Below, piece by piece: positions 14,994 to 64,000 of a stretch of DNA of 64,000 bases. Positions within the stretch are counted from its first letter, which is position 1; the number at the start of each line of letters is the position of its first letter. Source of the stretch: a virus. Lineage: Duplodnaviria > Caudoviricetes. Under the pieces are notes generated by a model that made no database searches, was not told where the DNA came from, and was given only the letters and a program-made list of their open reading frames with translations. The stretch lies in the IMG/VR virus record IMGVR_UViG_3300021399_000010, positions 15,215 to 79,214 of that record; one strand, written 5' to 3'. The position numbers and the translations under genes were made by a program.

Positions 14994-15785
14994 TTAGTTT
15001 TTTATGGATTTATATGTTGCTTGTATATAGCCTCTCAGTTTGGTCTGGGACTTCTTCACGTCTGAAAAATCCCATGATTGGAACAAGTCTCTGTCTATTT
15101 CAGAGTAGTCCCTCATCATAGACAAGATTCTTGTCTTGTTGTTTCCCTTCGTACTTATCTGTCCCCAATACCAATGATATGGATTGTCGTTCTTCGTCGC
15201 TTCGGGGAATACATTGCGAAGAACTTTGAGGAATGCCTGAACGTCTCGACTGTTCTTGTGTCGACTGTTCTTCGTTTTTCCACGCTGCTCGTACTCAGTA
15301 GCTTTCTCTTCCTCTGATTTTTTTGAGATTGTAAGTTTGTATTTGTCACTTGCGCCGCCCAATTTGCAGCCTTTTGCTTTCTTGACTGCAAGTGCTTTCT
15401 TTGTGCGGTCTGATGTCAACTCTCGTTCATACTGCGCAACAGATGCGAACACGCCAAGGAGGAGGGTGTTGATTTGTGGCATGTCACAGAAGTGAATTTC
15501 TATGCCTGTGTTGATGACCTTGAAACAGAACTCCACATCTCTCGCAAGTCTGTCAAGCTTCGCAATGACCAGAGCACATCCGTTTTGTTTGCAGAAGTCG
15601 ATAGCATTCAGAAGTCCCTTTCTGTCTCGGTGTGTACCGCTCTCAACATCCATGAACTGTTCTACCTTCTCTCCGTCGTTGGCTCGGATGAAGTCTTCGC
15701 AAATCTTTTGCTGAGACTCAAGGCCAAGCCCAGAACGCCCTTGTTTCTGTGTTGAGACTCGGATGTATACTGAATACTTTTTCAT
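14994..15785 (-). CDS. Small serine recombinase (resolvase/invertase family)
   Basis: YIRVSTQKQ with catalytic Ser, ESG..DRKGL, VIAKLDRLAR, SVAQYERELTSDRTK. Confidence 0.92.
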   Translation of the reverse strand: MKKYSVYIRVSTQKQGRSGLGLESQQKICEDFIRANDGEKVEQFMDVESGTHRDRKGLLNAIDFCKQNGCALVIAKLDRLARDVEFCFKVINTGIEIHFCDMPQINTLLLGVFASVAQYERELTSDRTKKALAVKKAKGCKLGGASDKYKLTISKKSEEEKATEYEQRGKTKNSRHKNSRDVQAFLKVLRNVFPEATKNDNPYHWYWGQISTKGNNKTRILSMMRDYSEIDRDLFQSWDFSDVKKSQTKLRGYIQATYKSIKN

Positions 15786-47649: not shown

Positions 47650-48081
47650 ATGGGATGGAGTGATTTGATTTTGTCGCTGCTCACTATTTTAGCAGGTGGT
47701 GGATGGTTTCTTACATACCGTGCCTACAAGCGGAAAAATGAAGGAGAGGCAGCGCAGGCTGAAGCCGAAGGGTGGAAAGCACAACAAGATGTATATCAGC
47801 AAACGATAGAGGACTTGAAACAATCATGTTCCTATATCCGTGATGACAGAAATCTTTTGAGAGAGGAGAATAAGAAGTTGCGTGATGAGAACAATCAGTT
47901 GCGTGACAAGTACAACGAACTTGAGCGACAAATCATTGATTTGCGGAAAGAACTTGCACGGCAAGAACGGAAGTTGGAGAGTGTTATCCCTTTTGTGTGC
48001 GGCCTTGCAGGGTGCGCCAATAGAACCCATGTTGAGTTTCAAGAGTCAATAACAGATAAAGACCATGCGGACAATATATAA
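47650..48081 (+). CDS. Probable holin or membrane lysis protein
   Basis: N-terminal TM followed by a coiled coil; directly upstream of the endolysin. Confidence 0.55.
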   Translation: MGWSDLILSLLTILAGGGWFLTYRAYKRKNEGEAAQAEAEGWKAQQDVYQQTIEDLKQSCSYIRDDRNLLREENKKLRDENNQLRDKYNELERQIIDLRKELARQERKLESVIPFVCGLAGCANRTHVEFQESITDKDHADNI

Positions 48082-48694
48082 AGGATGTAGAGGCGATGAT
48101 GTAAAAATCTTGCAGAGAGCATTACATCTGTTTGTCGATGGCATATTTGGTGCATTGACCGAAGAGGCCGTTAAGGATTTCCAAAAAGAGAATGGTATTG
48201 TTGCTGATGGCATTGTTGGTCAGCAGACGTGGTCGAAACTTTTGGGGAAGGACTCTTACGACAAGAATCAGCTTGAAAAATCGAAGAGGTTTATCAACGA
48301 GATAATCGTGCATTGCACTGCGACACCAGAGGGAAAGGATTTCACTGTTGATGATGTCACAAGATGGCATATCAAACGTGGTTTCTCAACCATTGGGTAT
48401 CATTATCTGATATACCGTGATGGAAGCGTGCATAAAGGACGTGACATCAATGTAAGTGGTGCTCACTGCACTGGACACAACAGAAACTCCATTGGAGTGT
48501 GTTATGTCGGTGGTTGCGCACCTAATAGCACCTCCCCAAAGGATACAAGGACAGATGCTCAAAAAACGGCTCTTGTTGATTTGCTTCGCAAGTTGCGAGT
48601 GCTTTACCCACAAGCAAAGATTCATGGTCATAGGGACTTTGCAAACAAGGCTTGTCCGTCATTTGATGCAACGAAGGAATATAGAAATATATGA
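48065..48694 (+). CDS. Endolysin: PG-binding domain plus N-acetylmuramoyl-L-alanine amidase (T7 lysozyme-like)
   Basis: DGIFGALTEEAVKDFQ...DGIVG; IIVHCTAT, IGYHYLI, GAHCTGHN, HGHRDFANKACPSFD. Confidence 0.92.
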   Translation: MRTIYKGCRGDDVKILQRALHLFVDGIFGALTEEAVKDFQKENGIVADGIVGQQTWSKLLGKDSYDKNQLEKSKRFINEIIVHCTATPEGKDFTVDDVTRWHIKRGFSTIGYHYLIYRDGSVHKGRDINVSGAHCTGHNRNSIGVCYVGGCAPNSTSPKDTRTDAQKTALVDLLRKLRVLYPQAKIHGHRDFANKACPSFDATKEYRNI

Positions 48695-49086
48695 TGCGTA
48701 TGAGAAAGATACTGTTTTTGATAATGTGTTGTTCATTCTTCTCTTGTGCAACGAAACGCAAGATTGAGTACATAGACCGAGATGTTGTTAGGTATGAGAC
48801 AAAATACCAACATGACACACTGTTAACCAACATCCATGACAGTATCTTTCACACAATATACCAGAAAGGTGACACTGTTTACGACATAAAATACAAATAC
48901 AAAATCCAATATAGAGACAAGGTTGTATCACGATATGATACAATATACAAAGACAGCATACAGACCGTCTTTAAGGAAATAACCACCGAAAAGAAAGTTA
49001 TTCCTAATTGGTGCTACTATTCCTTGGTGTGTTGGGTTTTAATTATTATATTTGCAATCATAAAAGTTAGACAATGGATAGTTTAG
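48691..49086 (+). CDS. Unimolecular spanin-like lipoprotein
   Basis: Signal peptide with FFSC lipobox-like site, beta-rich middle, C-terminal TM with basic tail. Confidence 0.65.
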   Translation: MMRMRKILFLIMCCSFFSCATKRKIEYIDRDVVRYETKYQHDTLLTNIHDSIFHTIYQKGDTVYDIKYKYKIQYRDKVVSRYDTIYKDSIQTVFKEITTEKKVIPNWCYYSLVCWVLIIIFAIIKVRQWIV

Positions 49087-59957: not shown

Positions 59958-60101
59958 ATGGATGAATTTGACTTTGACAAACTAAAGTATTATGATGAGT
60001 CCGCAAGGAATCCAGATGACTCTATAGGTGGTTGTCTTGGTGTTGCATTAGGATTTGTCTTGTCATTGATAATATGTATAATATTAAACTGTATGACATG
60101 A
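59958..60101 (+). CDS. 47-aa single-TM peptide
   Basis: Hand translation MDEFDFDKLKYY...GGCLGVALGFVLSLIICIILNCMT. Confidence 0.5.
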   Translation: MDEFDFDKLKYYDESARNPDDSIGGCLGVALGFVLSLIICIILNCMT

Positions 60102-60178
60102 GCAAGAATACAACAAAAACATTGTTACTGGTGTTATCAGTGGCAATCACAACCATAGCACTTCTTTTGCTATTATAG
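60098..60178 (+). CDS. 26-aa single-TM peptide
   Basis: MSKNTTKTLLLVLSVAITTIALLLLL; ATGA-coupled to the previous ORF. Confidence 0.45.
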   Translation: MSKNTTKTLLLVLSVAITTIALLLLL

Positions 60179-60217: not shown

Positions 60218-60258
60218 GCGCATCGGTGTACAAATCAGTACATCGGTGCGCTTCTTTT
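60218..60258 (+). terminator. Intrinsic terminator ending the late operon
   Basis: 14-bp stem with two G-U pairs (strand-specific) plus TTCTTTT. Confidence 0.8.
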
Positions 60259-60319: not shown

Positions 60320-60345
60320 GGATTTGTTTTGTTTATATTTTTGTT
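60320..60345 (+). promoter_or_regulatory. Probable Bacteroidota promoter for the 60.4-kb module
   Basis: TATTTTTG (TAnnTTTG) with TTTG upstream, about 55 nt before ATG 60397. Confidence 0.5.
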
Positions 60346-60396: not shown

Positions 60397-61365
60397 ATGG
60401 CAGAGATTTATCAATTACCCGAAAACGGGAACTCCAATGGTAATGCTACCATTCCTTTCTCGATTCCCATCGGTTTCGGCGGTTATGGCGGCAATGGTAT
60501 GTTTGGTAACGGTAATGGTTTCAACTCCATAGCTGACCTCTTCGGACTTGCTATCATCGCATCCATGTTTGGATGGGGCAACGGAGGTTTCGGCGGCGGT
60601 TTCGGTTTTGGAGGCAATAGCGGAGCAGGCTTCATTTCAAACCAACTCAACAATGACAGTGGTCGGGAACTTCTCATGAACGCAATCACCAACCAAGGTG
60701 AGGCATCGAGAACTGCAATCCAGACTCTTTCCACTATGTTGGGACAAGACTTCAACCTTGTGAACGCAGGAATCCAGAGTGCTCAGAACACATTGAACCA
60801 AATCGCCAATCAGCAGGGAATGTCTACCTTGCAGCTGATTAATGCAGTCCAAGCAGGTGATGCCGCATTGACGAGTACCATTCAGAAGTGTTGTTGTGAC
60901 AATCAACTTGCGTTATGCCAGCAGACGAACGCATTGCAGAATGGCATCAATGGCGTACAGCAAAGTATTGCGTCAAAGAGTGCGGCTGACCAGCTTGCCA
61001 TGTGCCAGCAGACCTACAATCTTACCGACACGATGAACCGCAACTACCTTGCTCTTGACAACAAGATAGATGCAATGGAGTCAAGTCGCAAGGATAGGGA
61101 GATTTCCGCACTCACCGCACAAGTCGCAAAGCTTGAGTCGCAGAACTTCACCGCAGGAATCGTTCAGCAAGCAGTTGCTCCCATCAATGCTCAACTTGCT
61201 GGTCTTGCAAACGAGGTGGATGGCATTAAGTGCAAACTTCCCTCAACCGTAAACGTTCAGTATCCGAATCTTATTGCGATGAATGCGACACCCTATGTTA
61301 GTGGTGGTTTCTATCCCAACGGTTACGGATACAACGGTTTCGGGAACGGGAATCTGGTGTTCTGA
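60397..61365 (+). CDS. Gly-rich, TM, coiled-coil protein with a CCC motif
   Basis: GFGG-rich N-terminus around IADLFGLAIIASMFGWG, Gln/Asn-rich heptads, KCCCDN. Confidence 0.85.
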   Translation: MAEIYQLPENGNSNGNATIPFSIPIGFGGYGGNGMFGNGNGFNSIADLFGLAIIASMFGWGNGGFGGGFGFGGNSGAGFISNQLNNDSGRELLMNAITNQGEASRTAIQTLSTMLGQDFNLVNAGIQSAQNTLNQIANQQGMSTLQLINAVQAGDAALTSTIQKCCCDNQLALCQQTNALQNGINGVQQSIASKSAADQLAMCQQTYNLTDTMNRNYLALDNKIDAMESSRKDREISALTAQVAKLESQNFTAGIVQQAVAPINAQLAGLANEVDGIKCKLPSTVNVQYPNLIAMNATPYVSGGFYPNGYGYNGFGNGNLVF

Positions 61366-61389
61366 TTAAGGATATAGGAGGTAAAAGGT

Positions 61390-61734
61390 ATGAGTTGTAG
61401 TTGTAATTGCAATATAACGACAAATGCTGGTGGTATTCCTTATATCAGCAACACTAACGTAACGGTCGGAACGGACACCGTGGACATCGCATTGGGATTC
61501 CGTCGCATTCAGCCCGTTGGGTACTTTACGGTACACATGGAGAATGCAATCCCTGCTGATGCAACCACAACGCTTCCTGTGACACTTACGATGAACGGTG
61601 TTACAAGGAACTTGACATTGTACAACGGTGATGCAGTGACAGTGGCAGAACTGATTGGTGGAACTGGTGTTTTCCTTGTGTTCAATAACCGTTTCGATGG
61701 CATACTTCAATTGATGTCAAGAACTATTGCGTAA
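61390..61734 (+). CDS. Beta-rich protein with N-terminal CSCNC
   Basis: 114 aa; AGGAGGT 7 nt upstream. Confidence 0.8.
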   Translation: MSCSCNCNITTNAGGIPYISNTNVTVGTDTVDIALGFRRIQPVGYFTVHMENAIPADATTTLPVTLTMNGVTRNLTLYNGDAVTVAELIGGTGVFLVFNNRFDGILQLMSRTIA

Positions 61735-61752
61735 CAATTAATATTTTCAATT

Positions 61753-62274
61753 ATGGATTTTAACAGTCTTGGTAATGGTAATCCGTTTTATGTATTGAGA
61801 AAGGGAGAGAAACCCGTCTTGGAGGTTGGTGTTGTCAAGTCAAAATCACAACCAAGGGCAAAGTTTCCGACCCAGACACCGAACATCATGTCTGGTGTGC
61901 AGATGCAGCAAGTCATCGATGTAACCGCAACAATAAACGGAAGGGATGAGGTATTCAGTGATATACCTGTGAATGTTGAGATAGCAGCGAGGGGAAATGA
62001 CACCTTTAGTGGCAGTCGGGAAGCAATGCTCCAAGCGGTGGATGCAATGTTGCAGACATCAAAGAAAGCACTTGAACAAGTATCATACCACAAAGGTGTT
62101 ATTACAGAAAGTGAGAAGATGCTTGAGGTGTTGAATCCGAGATATGCGGAAGAGAAGCGTCAAGCAAGGACAATAAGTGATTTGGAGAAGCGTCAAGCTG
62201 CAACCGACCAGAAACTCGATGCTATACTTGGCATCTTGCAGAAACTCGACTCTCCGTCACCAAGTTCTGTTTAG
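61753..62274 (+). CDS. Hypothetical protein, beta N-terminus and coiled-coil C-terminus
   Basis: 173-aa ORF in the module. Confidence 0.8.
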   Translation: MDFNSLGNGNPFYVLRKGEKPVLEVGVVKSKSQPRAKFPTQTPNIMSGVQMQQVIDVTATINGRDEVFSDIPVNVEIAARGNDTFSGSREAMLQAVDAMLQTSKKALEQVSYHKGVITESEKMLEVLNPRYAEEKRQARTISDLEKRQAATDQKLDAILGILQKLDSPSPSSV

Positions 62275-62308
62275 TTAAGTCGTAACCAATAAAAAAATAC
62301 ACAATACT

Positions 62309-62542
62309 ATGGCTTGGATTTTTGTAGACAAAGAAGAAGAGAGCGGAAAGCAACAGATGCGTTCCAACATGCGTCAGATGATGCGTAGTGGTGGTTATCG
62401 CAACTATGGTGGTGGCAACAGCGGTAGTTATCGTGATGGCTACCGTCAAGGCTACAGGCATGGTTGGGAAGACTCCGAGGACGACATGGAAGATGATTCC
62501 GAATTTCGGCGGCGCAGAGACAGTCGTGGACGATTTATGTAG
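62309..62542 (+). CDS. Small disordered Gly/Tyr/Arg-rich protein
   Basis: GGYRNYGGGNSGSYRDGYRQGYRHG, acidic patch, ends RRRRDSRGRFM. Confidence 0.75.
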   Translation: MAWIFVDKEEESGKQQMRSNMRQMMRSGGYRNYGGGNSGSYRDGYRQGYRHGWEDSEDDMEDDSEFRRRRDSRGRFM

Positions 62543-62566
62543 AGGTGAGTAACAAATATTTATCAT

Positions 62567-62597
62567 AGGGGGGAGATTTTATTGTTTCCCCCTTTTA
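62567..62597 (+). terminator. Hairpin inside the module
   Basis: GGGGGA...TCCCCC followed by TTTT. Confidence 0.5.
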
Positions 62598-62622
62598 GTT
62601 AAACAAATAAACAAAGAATAAT

Positions 62623-63015
62623 ATGAAACAATACATTTCTGAGGGGGAGGCAATATACATGGATAAGAACTTTGGTTTGTTCAGCAGGAGACTTGCGGAG
62701 TGGGCAATCTCAAATATGGAAACCAAAGAAGGTAAGGAAATGAAGCCCATTAAGGCGAAGCCTTTAAGGGAGTTTGAGGATATACTCAAGGAGTACAAGG
62801 TTGAGTTGCAAGAAGAGTTTGTGTACACTGGTTGGTATCTCTACAACATGGCAATTGCAGACTATCCGCAAACATTGAAGACGGATGAGCAGCGAGTTAA
62901 GTTTGTTGAGGAGACGATATGTGACCCAGATGGTTCGCCAGAGAATGTCCTTGCTTGTTTTGTTGCCAAGATGTGTGTCGCAGGAGTACCCATATATTGG
63001 GAGAAATATTTGTAA
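62623..63015 (+). CDS. Helical hypothetical protein
   Basis: 130 aa; YLYNMAIADY, DPDG, GVPIYWEKYL. Confidence 0.8.
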   Translation: MKQYISEGEAIYMDKNFGLFSRRLAEWAISNMETKEGKEMKPIKAKPLREFEDILKEYKVELQEEFVYTGWYLYNMAIADYPQTLKTDEQRVKFVEETICDPDGSPENVLACFVAKMCVAGVPIYWEKYL

Positions 63016-63018
63016 GCT

Positions 63019-63408
63019 ATGAAGACTGAGTATATTGATGTGGACGGTTACTGGGGTATTGCAATATGTCATGATTATGATGTTTCTAACCCTGAAGATG
63101 AACATATTCTATGGGGGTATATGCGTTCATTTGGCATGAAAGAAAGAAATATCAATAAGGCGTTAAACATTCTCTCAAATTACAACACAGGAATGTGTGT
63201 GTCAAACAATGACGTGCGAATGAGTGGCATATTTATAAGCAAGGCAACAAGTCCGAGTGAATGGTGGTCATCGTGCTTGCACGAGTTGCGTCATTGCGCA
63301 CAAGCAATTATTGACTACTATGGCGCGGATTGGAACGAAGACGATGCTTATCTAACAGGCTTTCTTACTAAACGTGCAGTTGAGATATTGGGTGAACCTT
63401 GTAGATAG
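63019..63408 (+). CDS. Putative zincin-like metallopeptidase
   Basis: HELRH (HExxH) with downstream EDDAY. Confidence 0.65.
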   Translation: MKTEYIDVDGYWGIAICHDYDVSNPEDEHILWGYMRSFGMKERNINKALNILSNYNTGMCVSNNDVRMSGIFISKATSPSEWWSSCLHELRHCAQAIIDYYGADWNEDDAYLTGFLTKRAVEILGEPCR

Positions 63409-63430
63409 AGCCTCATTGTGTAGGCTCTAT
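63405..63430. terminator. Bidirectional hairpin between convergent genes
   Basis: ATAGAGCCT/AGGCTCTAT 9-bp stem. Confidence 0.65.
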
Positions 63431-64000
63431 CATTTTTGTTTTCCACAAAAAGCCAAATACCAATTTGTTTTTGTCTCTATGTTTTGCTATCAAGCTTTTT
63501 GCTGAAGTAATTTTATATCCTATTGGTGCTGCATCTTTTGCTGCGTCACTTATAGAATCATACATTTTTATAAATGTGCCATCTTTAGAGTATTTTCCTA
63601 TTTTAATTGTAAGACCTTTTTCTTTTCTTGTTCTTATTTGTTTTTCCCTATATTCTTTACTTTTTCTTGAATTTACAACTTTTTGGTGCGTAATTGGGTT
63701 TCTTGCATTTTCTAATCTTGTACACCACTTTAAATTTTCCACTCTATTATCAAGCCTGTTTGTGTTTATATGGTCTATATGATTTTTGCCGTTTGGTTTC
63801 TCTATAAAAGCCATTGCCACAATTCTATGAACCGCAAGTGTTTCATGTTTGCTATTTTTGGATAATGTTATATAATAATAACCATCATGTATTTTTAGAT
63901 TTCTAATACTTTCACGTCTGTGTATTTGGCGATTTTTTGTGTTTATAGTCCTTTTAAGTGACTTTATTCTTCCATTATTACTCACTTCGTACAGACCTTC
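63413..64000 (-). CDS. NUMOD4-HNH-NUMOD1 homing endonuclease, truncated by window end
   Basis: EGLYEVSNNGRIKS (frame open to 64000), VHRIVAMAF, IDHINTNRLDNRVENLKWCT, YDSISDAAK. Confidence 0.88.
   Translation of the reverse strand, partial: EGLYEVSNNGRIKSLKRTINTKNRQIHRRESIRNLKIHDGYYYITLSKNSKHETLAVHRIVAMAFIEKPNGKNHIDHINTNRLDNRVENLKWCTRLENARNPITHQKVVNSRKSKEYREKQIRTRKEKGLTIKIGKYSKDGTFIKMYDSISDAAKDAAPIGYKITSAKSLIAKHRDKNKLVFGFLWKTKMIEPTQ

Follow-up and report, generated by a model that had tools for sequence, protein, structure and literature searches.

Organization of the CCC module

The 64,000-nucleotide stretch analysed here, referred to as the window (positions 15,215 to 79,214 of IMG/VR virus record IMGVR_UViG_3300021399_000010), comes from a tape-measure siphovirus-type phage whose gene layout matches that of Bacteroides phage C3_41T2LP and whose closest relatives are IMG/VR contigs from rumen and gut together with metagenome-assembled genomes (MAGs) of Bacteroidales. 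On its + strand, six consecutive open reading frames (ORFs) form one conserved, horizontally mobile accessory operon, which we term the CCC module: ORF1 (60397-61365, 322 amino acids), ORF2 (61390-61734, 114 amino acids), ORF3 (61753-62274, 173 amino acids), ORF4 (62309-62542, 77 amino acids), ORF5 (62623-63015, 130 amino acids) and ORF6 (63019-63408, 129 amino acids, a putative minimal zincin). The six ORFs had been picked out in an earlier, sequence-only reading of this DNA, and the motifs it listed are all confirmed: KCCCD in ORF1, MSCSCNC at the start of ORF2, RRRRDSRGRFM at the end of ORF4, and HELRH with a later Glu in ORF6.

Hairpin scanning and inspection of the sequence place the module outside the virion operon, between two hairpins and with a TAnnTTTG box of its own, as the same reading had proposed. 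Upstream, a terminator-like hairpin (60218-60251, + strand; a 14 bp stem followed by a T-run) ends the tail-fibre/GH16 operon. The element TATTTTTG (60336-60343, + strand), which matches the Bacteroidota -7 box TAnnTTTG, lies 53 nucleotides (nt) 5′ of the ORF1 ATG and constitutes a putative promoter; a spaced-pattern search for Bacteroidota promoters found no -33 TTTG at standard spacing before ORF1. At the other end, a terminal hairpin with a 10 bp stem (63404-63431, + strand) separates ORF6 from a convergent HNH endonuclease gene; this hairpin had been described as bidirectional, but its T-run is present on the + strand only. A further hairpin followed by TT, terminator- or attenuator-like in appearance, occupies the spacer between ORF4 and ORF5 (62567-62594, + strand).

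The gene converging on ORF6 encodes an HNH/NUMOD homing endonuclease (63413-63985, - strand). Two tiny ORFs (59958-60101 and 60098-60178; 47 and 26 amino acids from ATG), each with one hydrophobic helix, lie in the interval from the GH16 gene to the terminator that precedes the module; they are kept solely in the closest relative, L071 (96% and 87% identity).

The six genes recur together in gut phages

Searches with the six proteins (tblastn) recovered the genes in the same order in almost all of some 90 IMG/VR loci, and hidden Markov models (HMMs) located the six genes in about 40 MAG loci of Bacteroidales type; all six are also present in C3_41T2LP, a cultured Bacteroides phage. crAss-like phages, which are among the most abundant human gut viruses, also have the module, with small rearrangements in members of different families. 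The order is ORF1, ORF2, ORF4-like, ORF3, ORF5, one extra gene and an endolysin in cr273_1 (L001); holin, LysB-like protein, an ORF5-ORF4 fusion, ORF1, ORF2 and ORF3 in cr109_1 (L100); and ORF1, a beta protein, ORF3, a small protein and ORF6 in cr116_1 (L101). Module genes of cr273_1 and cr109_1, for example the ORF1, ORF3 and ORF5 homologues, hold in-frame TAG codons, which fit the stop-codon recoding known in some crAss-like phages. Besides its clear ORF6 homologue (L101:8841-9239), cr116_1 has a second, weaker ORF6-like gene (L101:6255-6611; HMM E 1.6e-5) immediately upstream of the gene for the ORF1 homologue.

The co-occurrence of the six genes is far beyond chance. Gene-neighbourhood comparison bears out two suggestions of the sequence-only reading, namely that CCC and RRxxRGRYM genes recur together in gut phages (about 90 IMG/VR loci, C3_41T2LP and crAss-like phages) and that the genes form a dedicated, self-contained set. 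Of the three findings that this reading had named as refuting it (no co-occurrence in other genomes, products that all prove to be known virion components, no zincin fold in ORF6), none was obtained. Module loci for the most part do not share the tail-fibre and GH16 genes at its flank, and carriers of the module include contigs, up to 1.7 Mb long, that resemble chromosomes with prophages. When compared at the DNA level with GenBank phages, the module gave no match, and it was not found in crAss001-type phages in the searches made.

HNH homing endonuclease genes interrupt the module at varying junctions (ORF2/ORF3, ORF4/ORF5 and after ORF5) in a number of relatives (L005, L025, L034, L037, L040, L057, L062, L071 and L085). 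This pattern suggests repeated homing of HNH genes into a conserved module, as expected for DNA that is conserved between co-infecting phages.

ORF1 is a free-standing protein with an invariant CCC motif

The N-terminal part of ORF1 comprises a conserved leading segment (IPFSIPIGG), a Gly-rich flank, the hydrophobic stretch IADLFGLAIIASMFGW and a second Gly-rich flank; the C-terminal part consists of a Q/N-rich helical region that holds the CCC motif, followed by a Gly/aromatic tail ending in VF. In composition the protein is 13% Gly and 21% Gln plus Asn, with aromatic-rich ends. The three cysteines (residues 165-167, within QKCCCDNQ), which are followed by another Cys 7 residues past the last one, are invariant among ORF1 relatives from both versions of the module described below. 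ORF1 is the sole module product in which a hydropathy scan detects a hydrophobic segment, and this segment is stronger in relatives (WIWILFLWLIW, FLWIIFLFFLF and MLIVLFLILILGF).

ORF1 matches phrog_16490 (HMM, E 3.5e-28), a PHROG family of unknown function. A profile search of 1.84 billion representative proteins returned 758 clusters (50% identity) at E<=1e-3; among the best 150 of these 758, every relative is at most 346 amino acids long, indicating a free-standing protein with no fusion seen. Profile searching of PDB sequences with the ORF1 alignment gave no significant match. Database annotators call ORF1 homologues "spike protein/glycoprotein", labels that probably reflect coiled-coil composition. 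The codon usage of ORF1 approximates that of the capsid gene, being about as close as the scaffold gene's and closer than that of the other genes tested, although this is weak evidence.

Soluble partners and a conserved internal hairpin

ORF2, a match to phrog_31654 (HMM, E 3.1e-13), is a small, beta-rich protein with a nearly invariant N-terminal Cys, in which neither a signal peptide nor a lipobox was found; its gene is preceded by a strong Shine-Dalgarno site. The succession of ORF1 and then ORF2 is the sole adjacency kept across all arrangements examined, and the presence of ORF2 follows the type of tail on ORF1. Where ORF1 bears the Gly/aromatic tail ending in F, ORF2 comes next in all 76 of 76 distinct ORF1s, and where it bears an alternative tail (TITLP...VPTIWA...TPTTT; 10-12 ORF1s), ORF2 is missing and ORF3 comes directly after. 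This match suggests a coupling of ORF2 to the ORF1 tail, although the two are adjacent in the DNA and a single block swap could also explain it. A complex prediction for ORF1 (residues 75-322) with ORF2 scored 0.00, which speaks neither for nor against binding. The ORF2 alignment had no significant match in a profile search of PDB sequences, and the ESM Atlas returned no model and no named cluster for either ORF2 or ORF5.

ORF3 matches phrog_28898 (HMM, E 1.5e-29). Its AlphaFold2 (AF2) model (predicted local distance difference test score, pLDDT, 85) shows a barrel resembling SH3, Tudor and EF-P domain I folds (residues 1-90), then a helical hairpin and a long C-terminal helix. The best structural match to the barrel (Z 6.3, root-mean-square deviation (rmsd) 2.3, 63 residues aligned) is to be read with the generic nature of barrel matches in mind. 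Foldseek (PDB) and VIA-align found nothing above background for the ORF3 model, the comparison with BFVD returned only uncharacterised phage proteins, the cr109_1 ORF3 homologue among them, and a profile search of PDB sequences with the ORF3 alignment yielded no significant match.

ORF4 is 17% Arg, 19% Asp plus Glu and 13% aromatic. Its family conserves a start (MxWIFVDK), MR repeats, the motif GYRxGYKHGWED and an end (RRxRDSRGR(Y/F)x), together with an acidic patch; judged from these linear motifs, the protein is more than low-complexity sequence. ORF5 belongs to Pfam DUF7841 (PF25223; 41.4 bits against a gathering cut-off of 25.2, E 1.9e-10), a domain carried by 120 of 120 ORF5 homologues among the matches listed, and also matches phrog_38431 (HMM, E 1.8e-14). 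In cr109_1 gp65, L143 and L148, a DUF7841-like domain continues into an ORF4-like tail that is acidic, rich in RG and ends in Y, and in cr109_1 a stand-alone ORF4 was not detected. A dedicated search for longer forms of ORF5 found none.

The division of ORF1-4 from ORF5-6 by an internal hairpin, noted in the sequence-only reading, proved to be a conserved trait. Among 49 distinct ORF4/ORF5 spacers of relatives, 39 contain a GC-rich stem with a T-rich tail, compared with a mean of 7.0 in base-order shuffles, and stems of at least 9 bp occur in 28 of the 49 (shuffles: mean 0.6, maximum 4). The stem sequences vary among loci; what is conserved is the structure. The ORF1-ORF2, ORF2-ORF3 and ORF3-ORF4 spacers have no hairpin and are far shorter (median 25-32 nt, versus 75 for ORF4/ORF5). 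Acting as a partial terminator, the hairpin would leave the products of ORF1-4 in excess over those of ORF5-6.

ORF6 resembles a minimal zincin

Across 43 sequences, ORF6 has five invariant residues: W12, H88, E89, H92 and E107. The HELRH motif (H88-H92) and downstream Glu to which the sequence-only reading had pointed thus correspond to an invariant HExxH...E pattern, and in the AF2 model (pLDDT 96) the former falls within a helix spanning residues 79-101, while E107 stands at the start of a second helix (107-124). The model runs strand-strand-helix-helix-strand-strand, then the HExxH helix and then the Glu helix, which is the layout of zincin-like metallopeptidase (MPTase) domains, with the Glu on the helix after HExxH, described in PMC5512222. 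ORF6 is thus modelled with the secondary-structure order of a minimal zincin and is a predicted peptidase.

Direct searches returned only distant candidates. Foldseek of the ORF6 model against the PDB found nothing at E<=0.001 (best, an M61 peptidase, E 0.13), and VIA-align gave no match above background, the highest being anthrax lethal factor (Z 4.8, rmsd 5.8, 103 aligned), an oligopeptidase (Z 4.8) and the YbeY-like AQ_1354 (Z 4.0). ORF6 falls below the Pfam cut-off (best DUF6782, E 0.098, 12.3 bits versus 27), has no NCBIfam match and, in a profile search of the PDB, came nearest to lugdulysin (E 0.089, not significant). Annotation of the C3_41T2LP homologue calls it a PolyVal-type metallopeptidase.

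A second version of the module extends to other hosts

ORF1 homologues are also found in Butyrivibrio phage Ceridwen and in two Methanomassiliicoccales-assigned viruses, and a contig scan added contigs with bin assignments to Clostridia, Lachnospiraceae, Oscillospiraceae, Erysipelotrichaceae, Aeriscardovia and Spirochaetaceae. Phage contigs may end up in the wrong MAG bin; Ceridwen, however, is a cultured phage with a Gram-positive host. The Bacillota-type ORF1 homologue also matches phrog_16490 (E 2.8e-36).

In Ceridwen and in the Bacillota-, Aeriscardovia- and Spirochaetaceae-binned contigs, ORF1 is part of a different, equally syntenic six-gene set (L153:5519-8426, L147:5916-7912, L160:5163-8297 and L099:4722-8359). 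This second version begins with F_pep (about 127 amino acids, invariant DC...H...D, phrog_3754), followed by F_o3, for which the sequence pattern predicts a barrel and a C-terminal helix (phrog_21718), and by a small helical protein (61-77 amino acids in the loci read). The ORF1 homologue (phrog_16490) holds the fourth position, ahead of F_o2, a beta protein with an invariant GCC (phrog_20016), and of F_o4, in which helical ends surround an R/G/Y/S-rich stretch with ARRDSMGRY (phrog_28802). The invariant residues of F_pep across 14 sequences (D17-C18, H98 and D109/D112) make up a Cys-His-Asp pattern that suggests a peptidase, with the papain-like or C39-like Cys peptidases as candidate relatives; no Pfam match and no PDB sequence match was found for F_pep, and the PDB profile search with F_o2 likewise gave nothing significant.

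At the sequence level the two versions share only ORF1, which is homologous, and the ORF4 motif. The latter, RRDS(R/M)GR(Y/F), is common to the ORF4 tail and to a disordered Bacillota protein family (A8), and one ORF4 relative reads RRRRDSMGRYI. Profile-profile comparison of ORF5 with F_o4 revealed no homology.

Individual loci differ in further respects. In L160 the second version lies between portal and scaffold/capsid genes and includes a small helix-turn-helix-like gene. In the Erysipelotrichaceae-binned L147, ORF2 is absent, and the module is followed by a gene (L147:7973-8908) for a 312-amino-acid protein with a Gly-rich N-terminal part, a coiled coil and no family match.

A tentative model: a peptidase-matured ORF1 assembly at the cytoplasmic membrane

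We tentatively favour, while holding it short of an even chance, the reading that the module builds an ORF1 assembly which a peptidase matures and which, associated with the cytoplasmic membrane, acts there at a late stage. ORF1 would sit in or on this membrane through its short, Gly-flanked hydrophobic segment and would oligomerise by its Q/N-rich helical region, with the CCC motif and the Cys one heptad on locking or metal-bridging the chains. ORF2 would partner with the Gly/aromatic C-terminal tail of ORF1, and ORF3 (SH3-like barrel plus coiled coil) and ORF5 (DUF7841) may handle the disordered ORF4 through RRDSxGR(Y/F). A small peptidase, the HExxH protein here and the Cys-His-Asp protein in the Bacillota version, would trim one component, possibly removing the N-terminal segment of ORF1 that precedes its Gly-rich hydrophobic part. 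The outcome could be an accessory to egress or lysis timing, or a membrane-remodelling step, as distinct from a holin/endolysin/spanin set.

The choice of compartment follows from the hosts and from the proteins. Inspection by eye and the hydropathy scan found no export signal in five of the six products, so that in the simplest picture these partners and the long domain of ORF1 are cytoplasmic, and the cytoplasmic membrane is favoured because it is the sole envelope layer common to all hosts. The sequence-only reading had inferred an effect on the host surface; in so far as this is tied to a Gram-negative envelope, it is weakened by the presence of ORF1 and a rearranged module in phages of monoderm hosts, by ORF1 in archaeal viruses and by the lack of export signals in five of the six products. 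Support for a maturation step comes from the retention of a peptidase-type enzyme, though of unrelated kinds, in both versions; if F_pep is indeed a peptidase, the occurrence of two unrelated peptidase types in one module would point to a proteolytic step as central. Also counted in favour of the model are the synteny of the six genes, the HNH insertions at varying junctions, the hydrophobic segment of ORF1 and its invariant CCC, the constant ORF1-ORF2 adjacency and the match of ORF2 to the ORF1 tail, the ORF5-ORF4 fusions, the RRDS(R/M)GR(Y/F) motif common to both versions, the conserved internal hairpin and, weakly, the codon usage of ORF1.

Several observations weigh against this model. Profile-profile comparison detects no homology between ORF2 and F_o2, ORF3 and F_o3, or ORF6 and F_pep, and the correspondence of the two versions consequently rests on architecture and position. 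The hydrophobic segment of ORF1 is short and weak in the window (Kyte-Doolittle 1.42 over 19 residues), and disulfide locking is doubtful because the hosts inhabit strongly reducing habitats. Pfam, NCBIfam, PADLOC, PDB sequences, Foldseek, VIA-align and the ESM Atlas supplied no decisive characterised relative; for all six proteins, the sole match in Pfam, NCBIfam and PADLOC is that of ORF5 to DUF7841. The module does adjoin lysis genes in cr273_1, cr109_1, cr116_1, L147 and Ceridwen, but this proximity may mark a usual insertion spot at the ends of late operons: 11 kb separate the module from the lysis cassette in the window, portal and scaffold genes enclose it in L160, and recombination genes precede it in C3_41T2LP.

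Alternative explanations

A somewhat unlikely alternative is that the products are virion-borne or ejected proteins, processed by the peptidase in the manner of P1 Dar/DdrB or T4 internal proteins, with ORF1 behaving as a pilot or ejection protein does and inserting in the target membrane, and ORF4, rich in Arg, accompanying the DNA. The PolyVal-type annotation of the C3_41T2LP ORF6 homologue speaks for it: such MPTase domains are typical of proteins that are delivered together with DNA, and for one of them a role in processing P1 DdrB ahead of packaging is predicted (PMC5512222). The position of the module between portal and scaffold/capsid genes in L160, the conserved N-terminus of ORF4 (a possible targeting signal) with its basic tail, and the wide host range, given that every host has a membrane to cross, agree with such a role. 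Packaging would, however, have to ignore virion type, since the same module is present in crAss-like podoviruses and in tape-measure siphoviruses, whose capsids and tails are unrelated; the promoter-like box and terminators outside the virion operon, and the failure to find the module in crAss001-type phages in the searches made, also speak against it.

A bolder proposal, in our judgement unlikely, is that ORF1 is a protease-primed, membrane-active coiled coil whose cleavage after the leading segment would, much as happens in class I fusion proteins, expose a hydrophobic end rich in Gly. Helped by a beta-sandwich cap, an adaptor of SH3-like fold and a disordered client rich in RG/Y, it would remodel or fuse the cytoplasmic membrane late in infection by a path unrelated to that of holins and spanins. 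Such a machine, of a kind not recognised before, would be common to viruses that infect Bacteroidota, Bacillota, further gut bacteria and methanogens of the gut.

We also doubt that the module is a moron that shields the infected or lysogenic cell by superinfection exclusion, as the sequence-only reading had proposed, or by another surface or membrane change, even though it is self-contained, has a promoter-like box and terminator hairpins, includes one membrane-type protein and occurs in chromosome-like contigs of up to 1.7 Mb with prophages. It is also carried by crAss-like phages that have no annotated lysogeny genes in the regions seen, its six genes have high-expression features (the Shine-Dalgarno site of ORF2, codon use) that suggest a bulk product, and five of the six proteins lack export signals. 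The exclusion systems known to us consist of one or two small genes with no peptidase, which counts further against this explanation.

Improbable, too, is a cytoplasmic scaffold or condensate off the membrane, in which multivalent assembly, possibly with nucleic acid captured in it, would be driven by ORF1 through its Gly/aromatic ends and by ORF4, rich in Arg, Tyr and Gly. The composition of ORF1 (Gly, Gln plus Asn, aromatic) and ORF4 (Arg, acidic) accords with this, as does the cytoplasmic placement of all partners, and in several ORF1 relatives the hydrophobic core is too short for a classical transmembrane helix. Against this, no architectural feature of the family is more constant than the hydrophobic segment, which is strongly apolar in most relatives, and the conserved linear motifs of ORF4 go beyond mere composition.

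The idea that the module is canonical lysis machinery, with ORF1 as a holin, i-spanin or T4 T-like holin and the other products as its antiholins, is very improbable. It draws on the N-terminal hydrophobic segment of ORF1, followed by a long helical Cys-bearing domain, and on the nearby lysis genes of several phages. The window, however, already has a complete lysis cassette (47650-49086) directly after the portal gene, which argues that the CCC module is not the canonical lysis set. This cassette encodes a transmembrane-plus-coiled-coil protein (47650-48081, 143 amino acids), a PG_binding_1 plus Amidase_2 endolysin (48065-48694, 209 amino acids) and a unimolecular-spanin-like protein (48691-49086, 131 amino acids) with an N-terminal lipobox-like signal, MMRMRKILFLIMCCSFFSC, and a C-terminal transmembrane helix, an architecture that to our knowledge is not well described for Bacteroidota phages. 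L147 likewise has its own holin-like and amidase-like proteins (read by eye) directly upstream of the module. As a candidate holin, ORF1 is 322 amino acids long with one weak hydrophobic segment and is encoded 11 kb from the endolysin gene. A spanin role for ORF1 and ORF2 was rejected and is largely refuted: the ORF1 family extends to Ceridwen, Bacillota-binned contigs and Methanomassiliicoccales viruses, and its presence in phages of monoderm hosts and in viruses assigned to wall-less archaea, which offer no spanin role, argues against a spanin or outer-membrane function, while ORF2 has no lipobox or other lipoprotein signal. A defence-system reading was rejected too; PADLOC matched none of the six proteins.

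Significance

We place the CCC module outside the known kinds of phage system, because only the generic zincin motif relates it to anything characterised and because no paper found in the literature searches treats it, although it may yet turn out to assist a process already known. Literature searches on C3_41T2LP, on DUF7841 and on crAss-like lysis genes gave nothing on it, and the Ceridwen paper gives neither virion proteomics nor functional data on module genes. A multi-protein system that spans phages of Gram-negative and Gram-positive hosts and has no characterised component would point to a life-cycle step of phages in anaerobic gut communities that is as yet undescribed. Its presence in a cultured Bacteroides phage and in a cultured rumen Butyrivibrio phage makes it bench-testable now; if both enzymes are peptidases, proteolytic maturation would be central, and E89A in ORF6 offers a genetic handle.

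Comparison with known systems

Among characterised systems, lysis cassettes and their regulators (holin/endolysin/spanin; T4 T with RI/RIII) resemble the CCC module in combining a membrane-type protein, whose long helical domain bears Cys, with several small and soluble partners in a late-operon context, and the module often stands beside lysis genes. Unlike these cassettes, to which no sequence or fold relation was found, the module is present in phages of both diderm and monoderm hosts, with ORF1 alone in archaeal viruses, and includes a peptidase-like enzyme and a disordered RG/Y-rich protein; we know of no lysis cassette with such a pair. Phage morons share with the module an upstream terminator hairpin, a promoter-like box, a terminal hairpin and movement among unrelated phage backbones, but the module differs from them in its six co-adapted genes, its internal attenuator-like hairpin and its retention in apparently strictly lytic phages as well.

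The MPTase domains of polyvalent proteins (Iyer et al. 2017, PMC5512222) are like ORF6 in placing HExxH on one helix and a Glu on the next, in having a small beta-sheet before these two helices, and in the processing role proposed for them. ORF6, in contrast, is a free-standing protein of 129 amino acids rather than a domain of a giant multidomain protein, falls under the Pfam and NCBIfam cut-offs and has weak structural matches to zincins (Z 4.8). Class I fusion proteins, finally, recall the architecture of ORF1 in their short leading segment, Gly/Ala/Phe-rich hydrophobic segment and long heptad-like helices, and, as with protease-primed coiled coils generally, a dedicated putative protease is encoded alongside; the likeness of ORF1 to these proteins is one of linear architecture, as distinct from homology.

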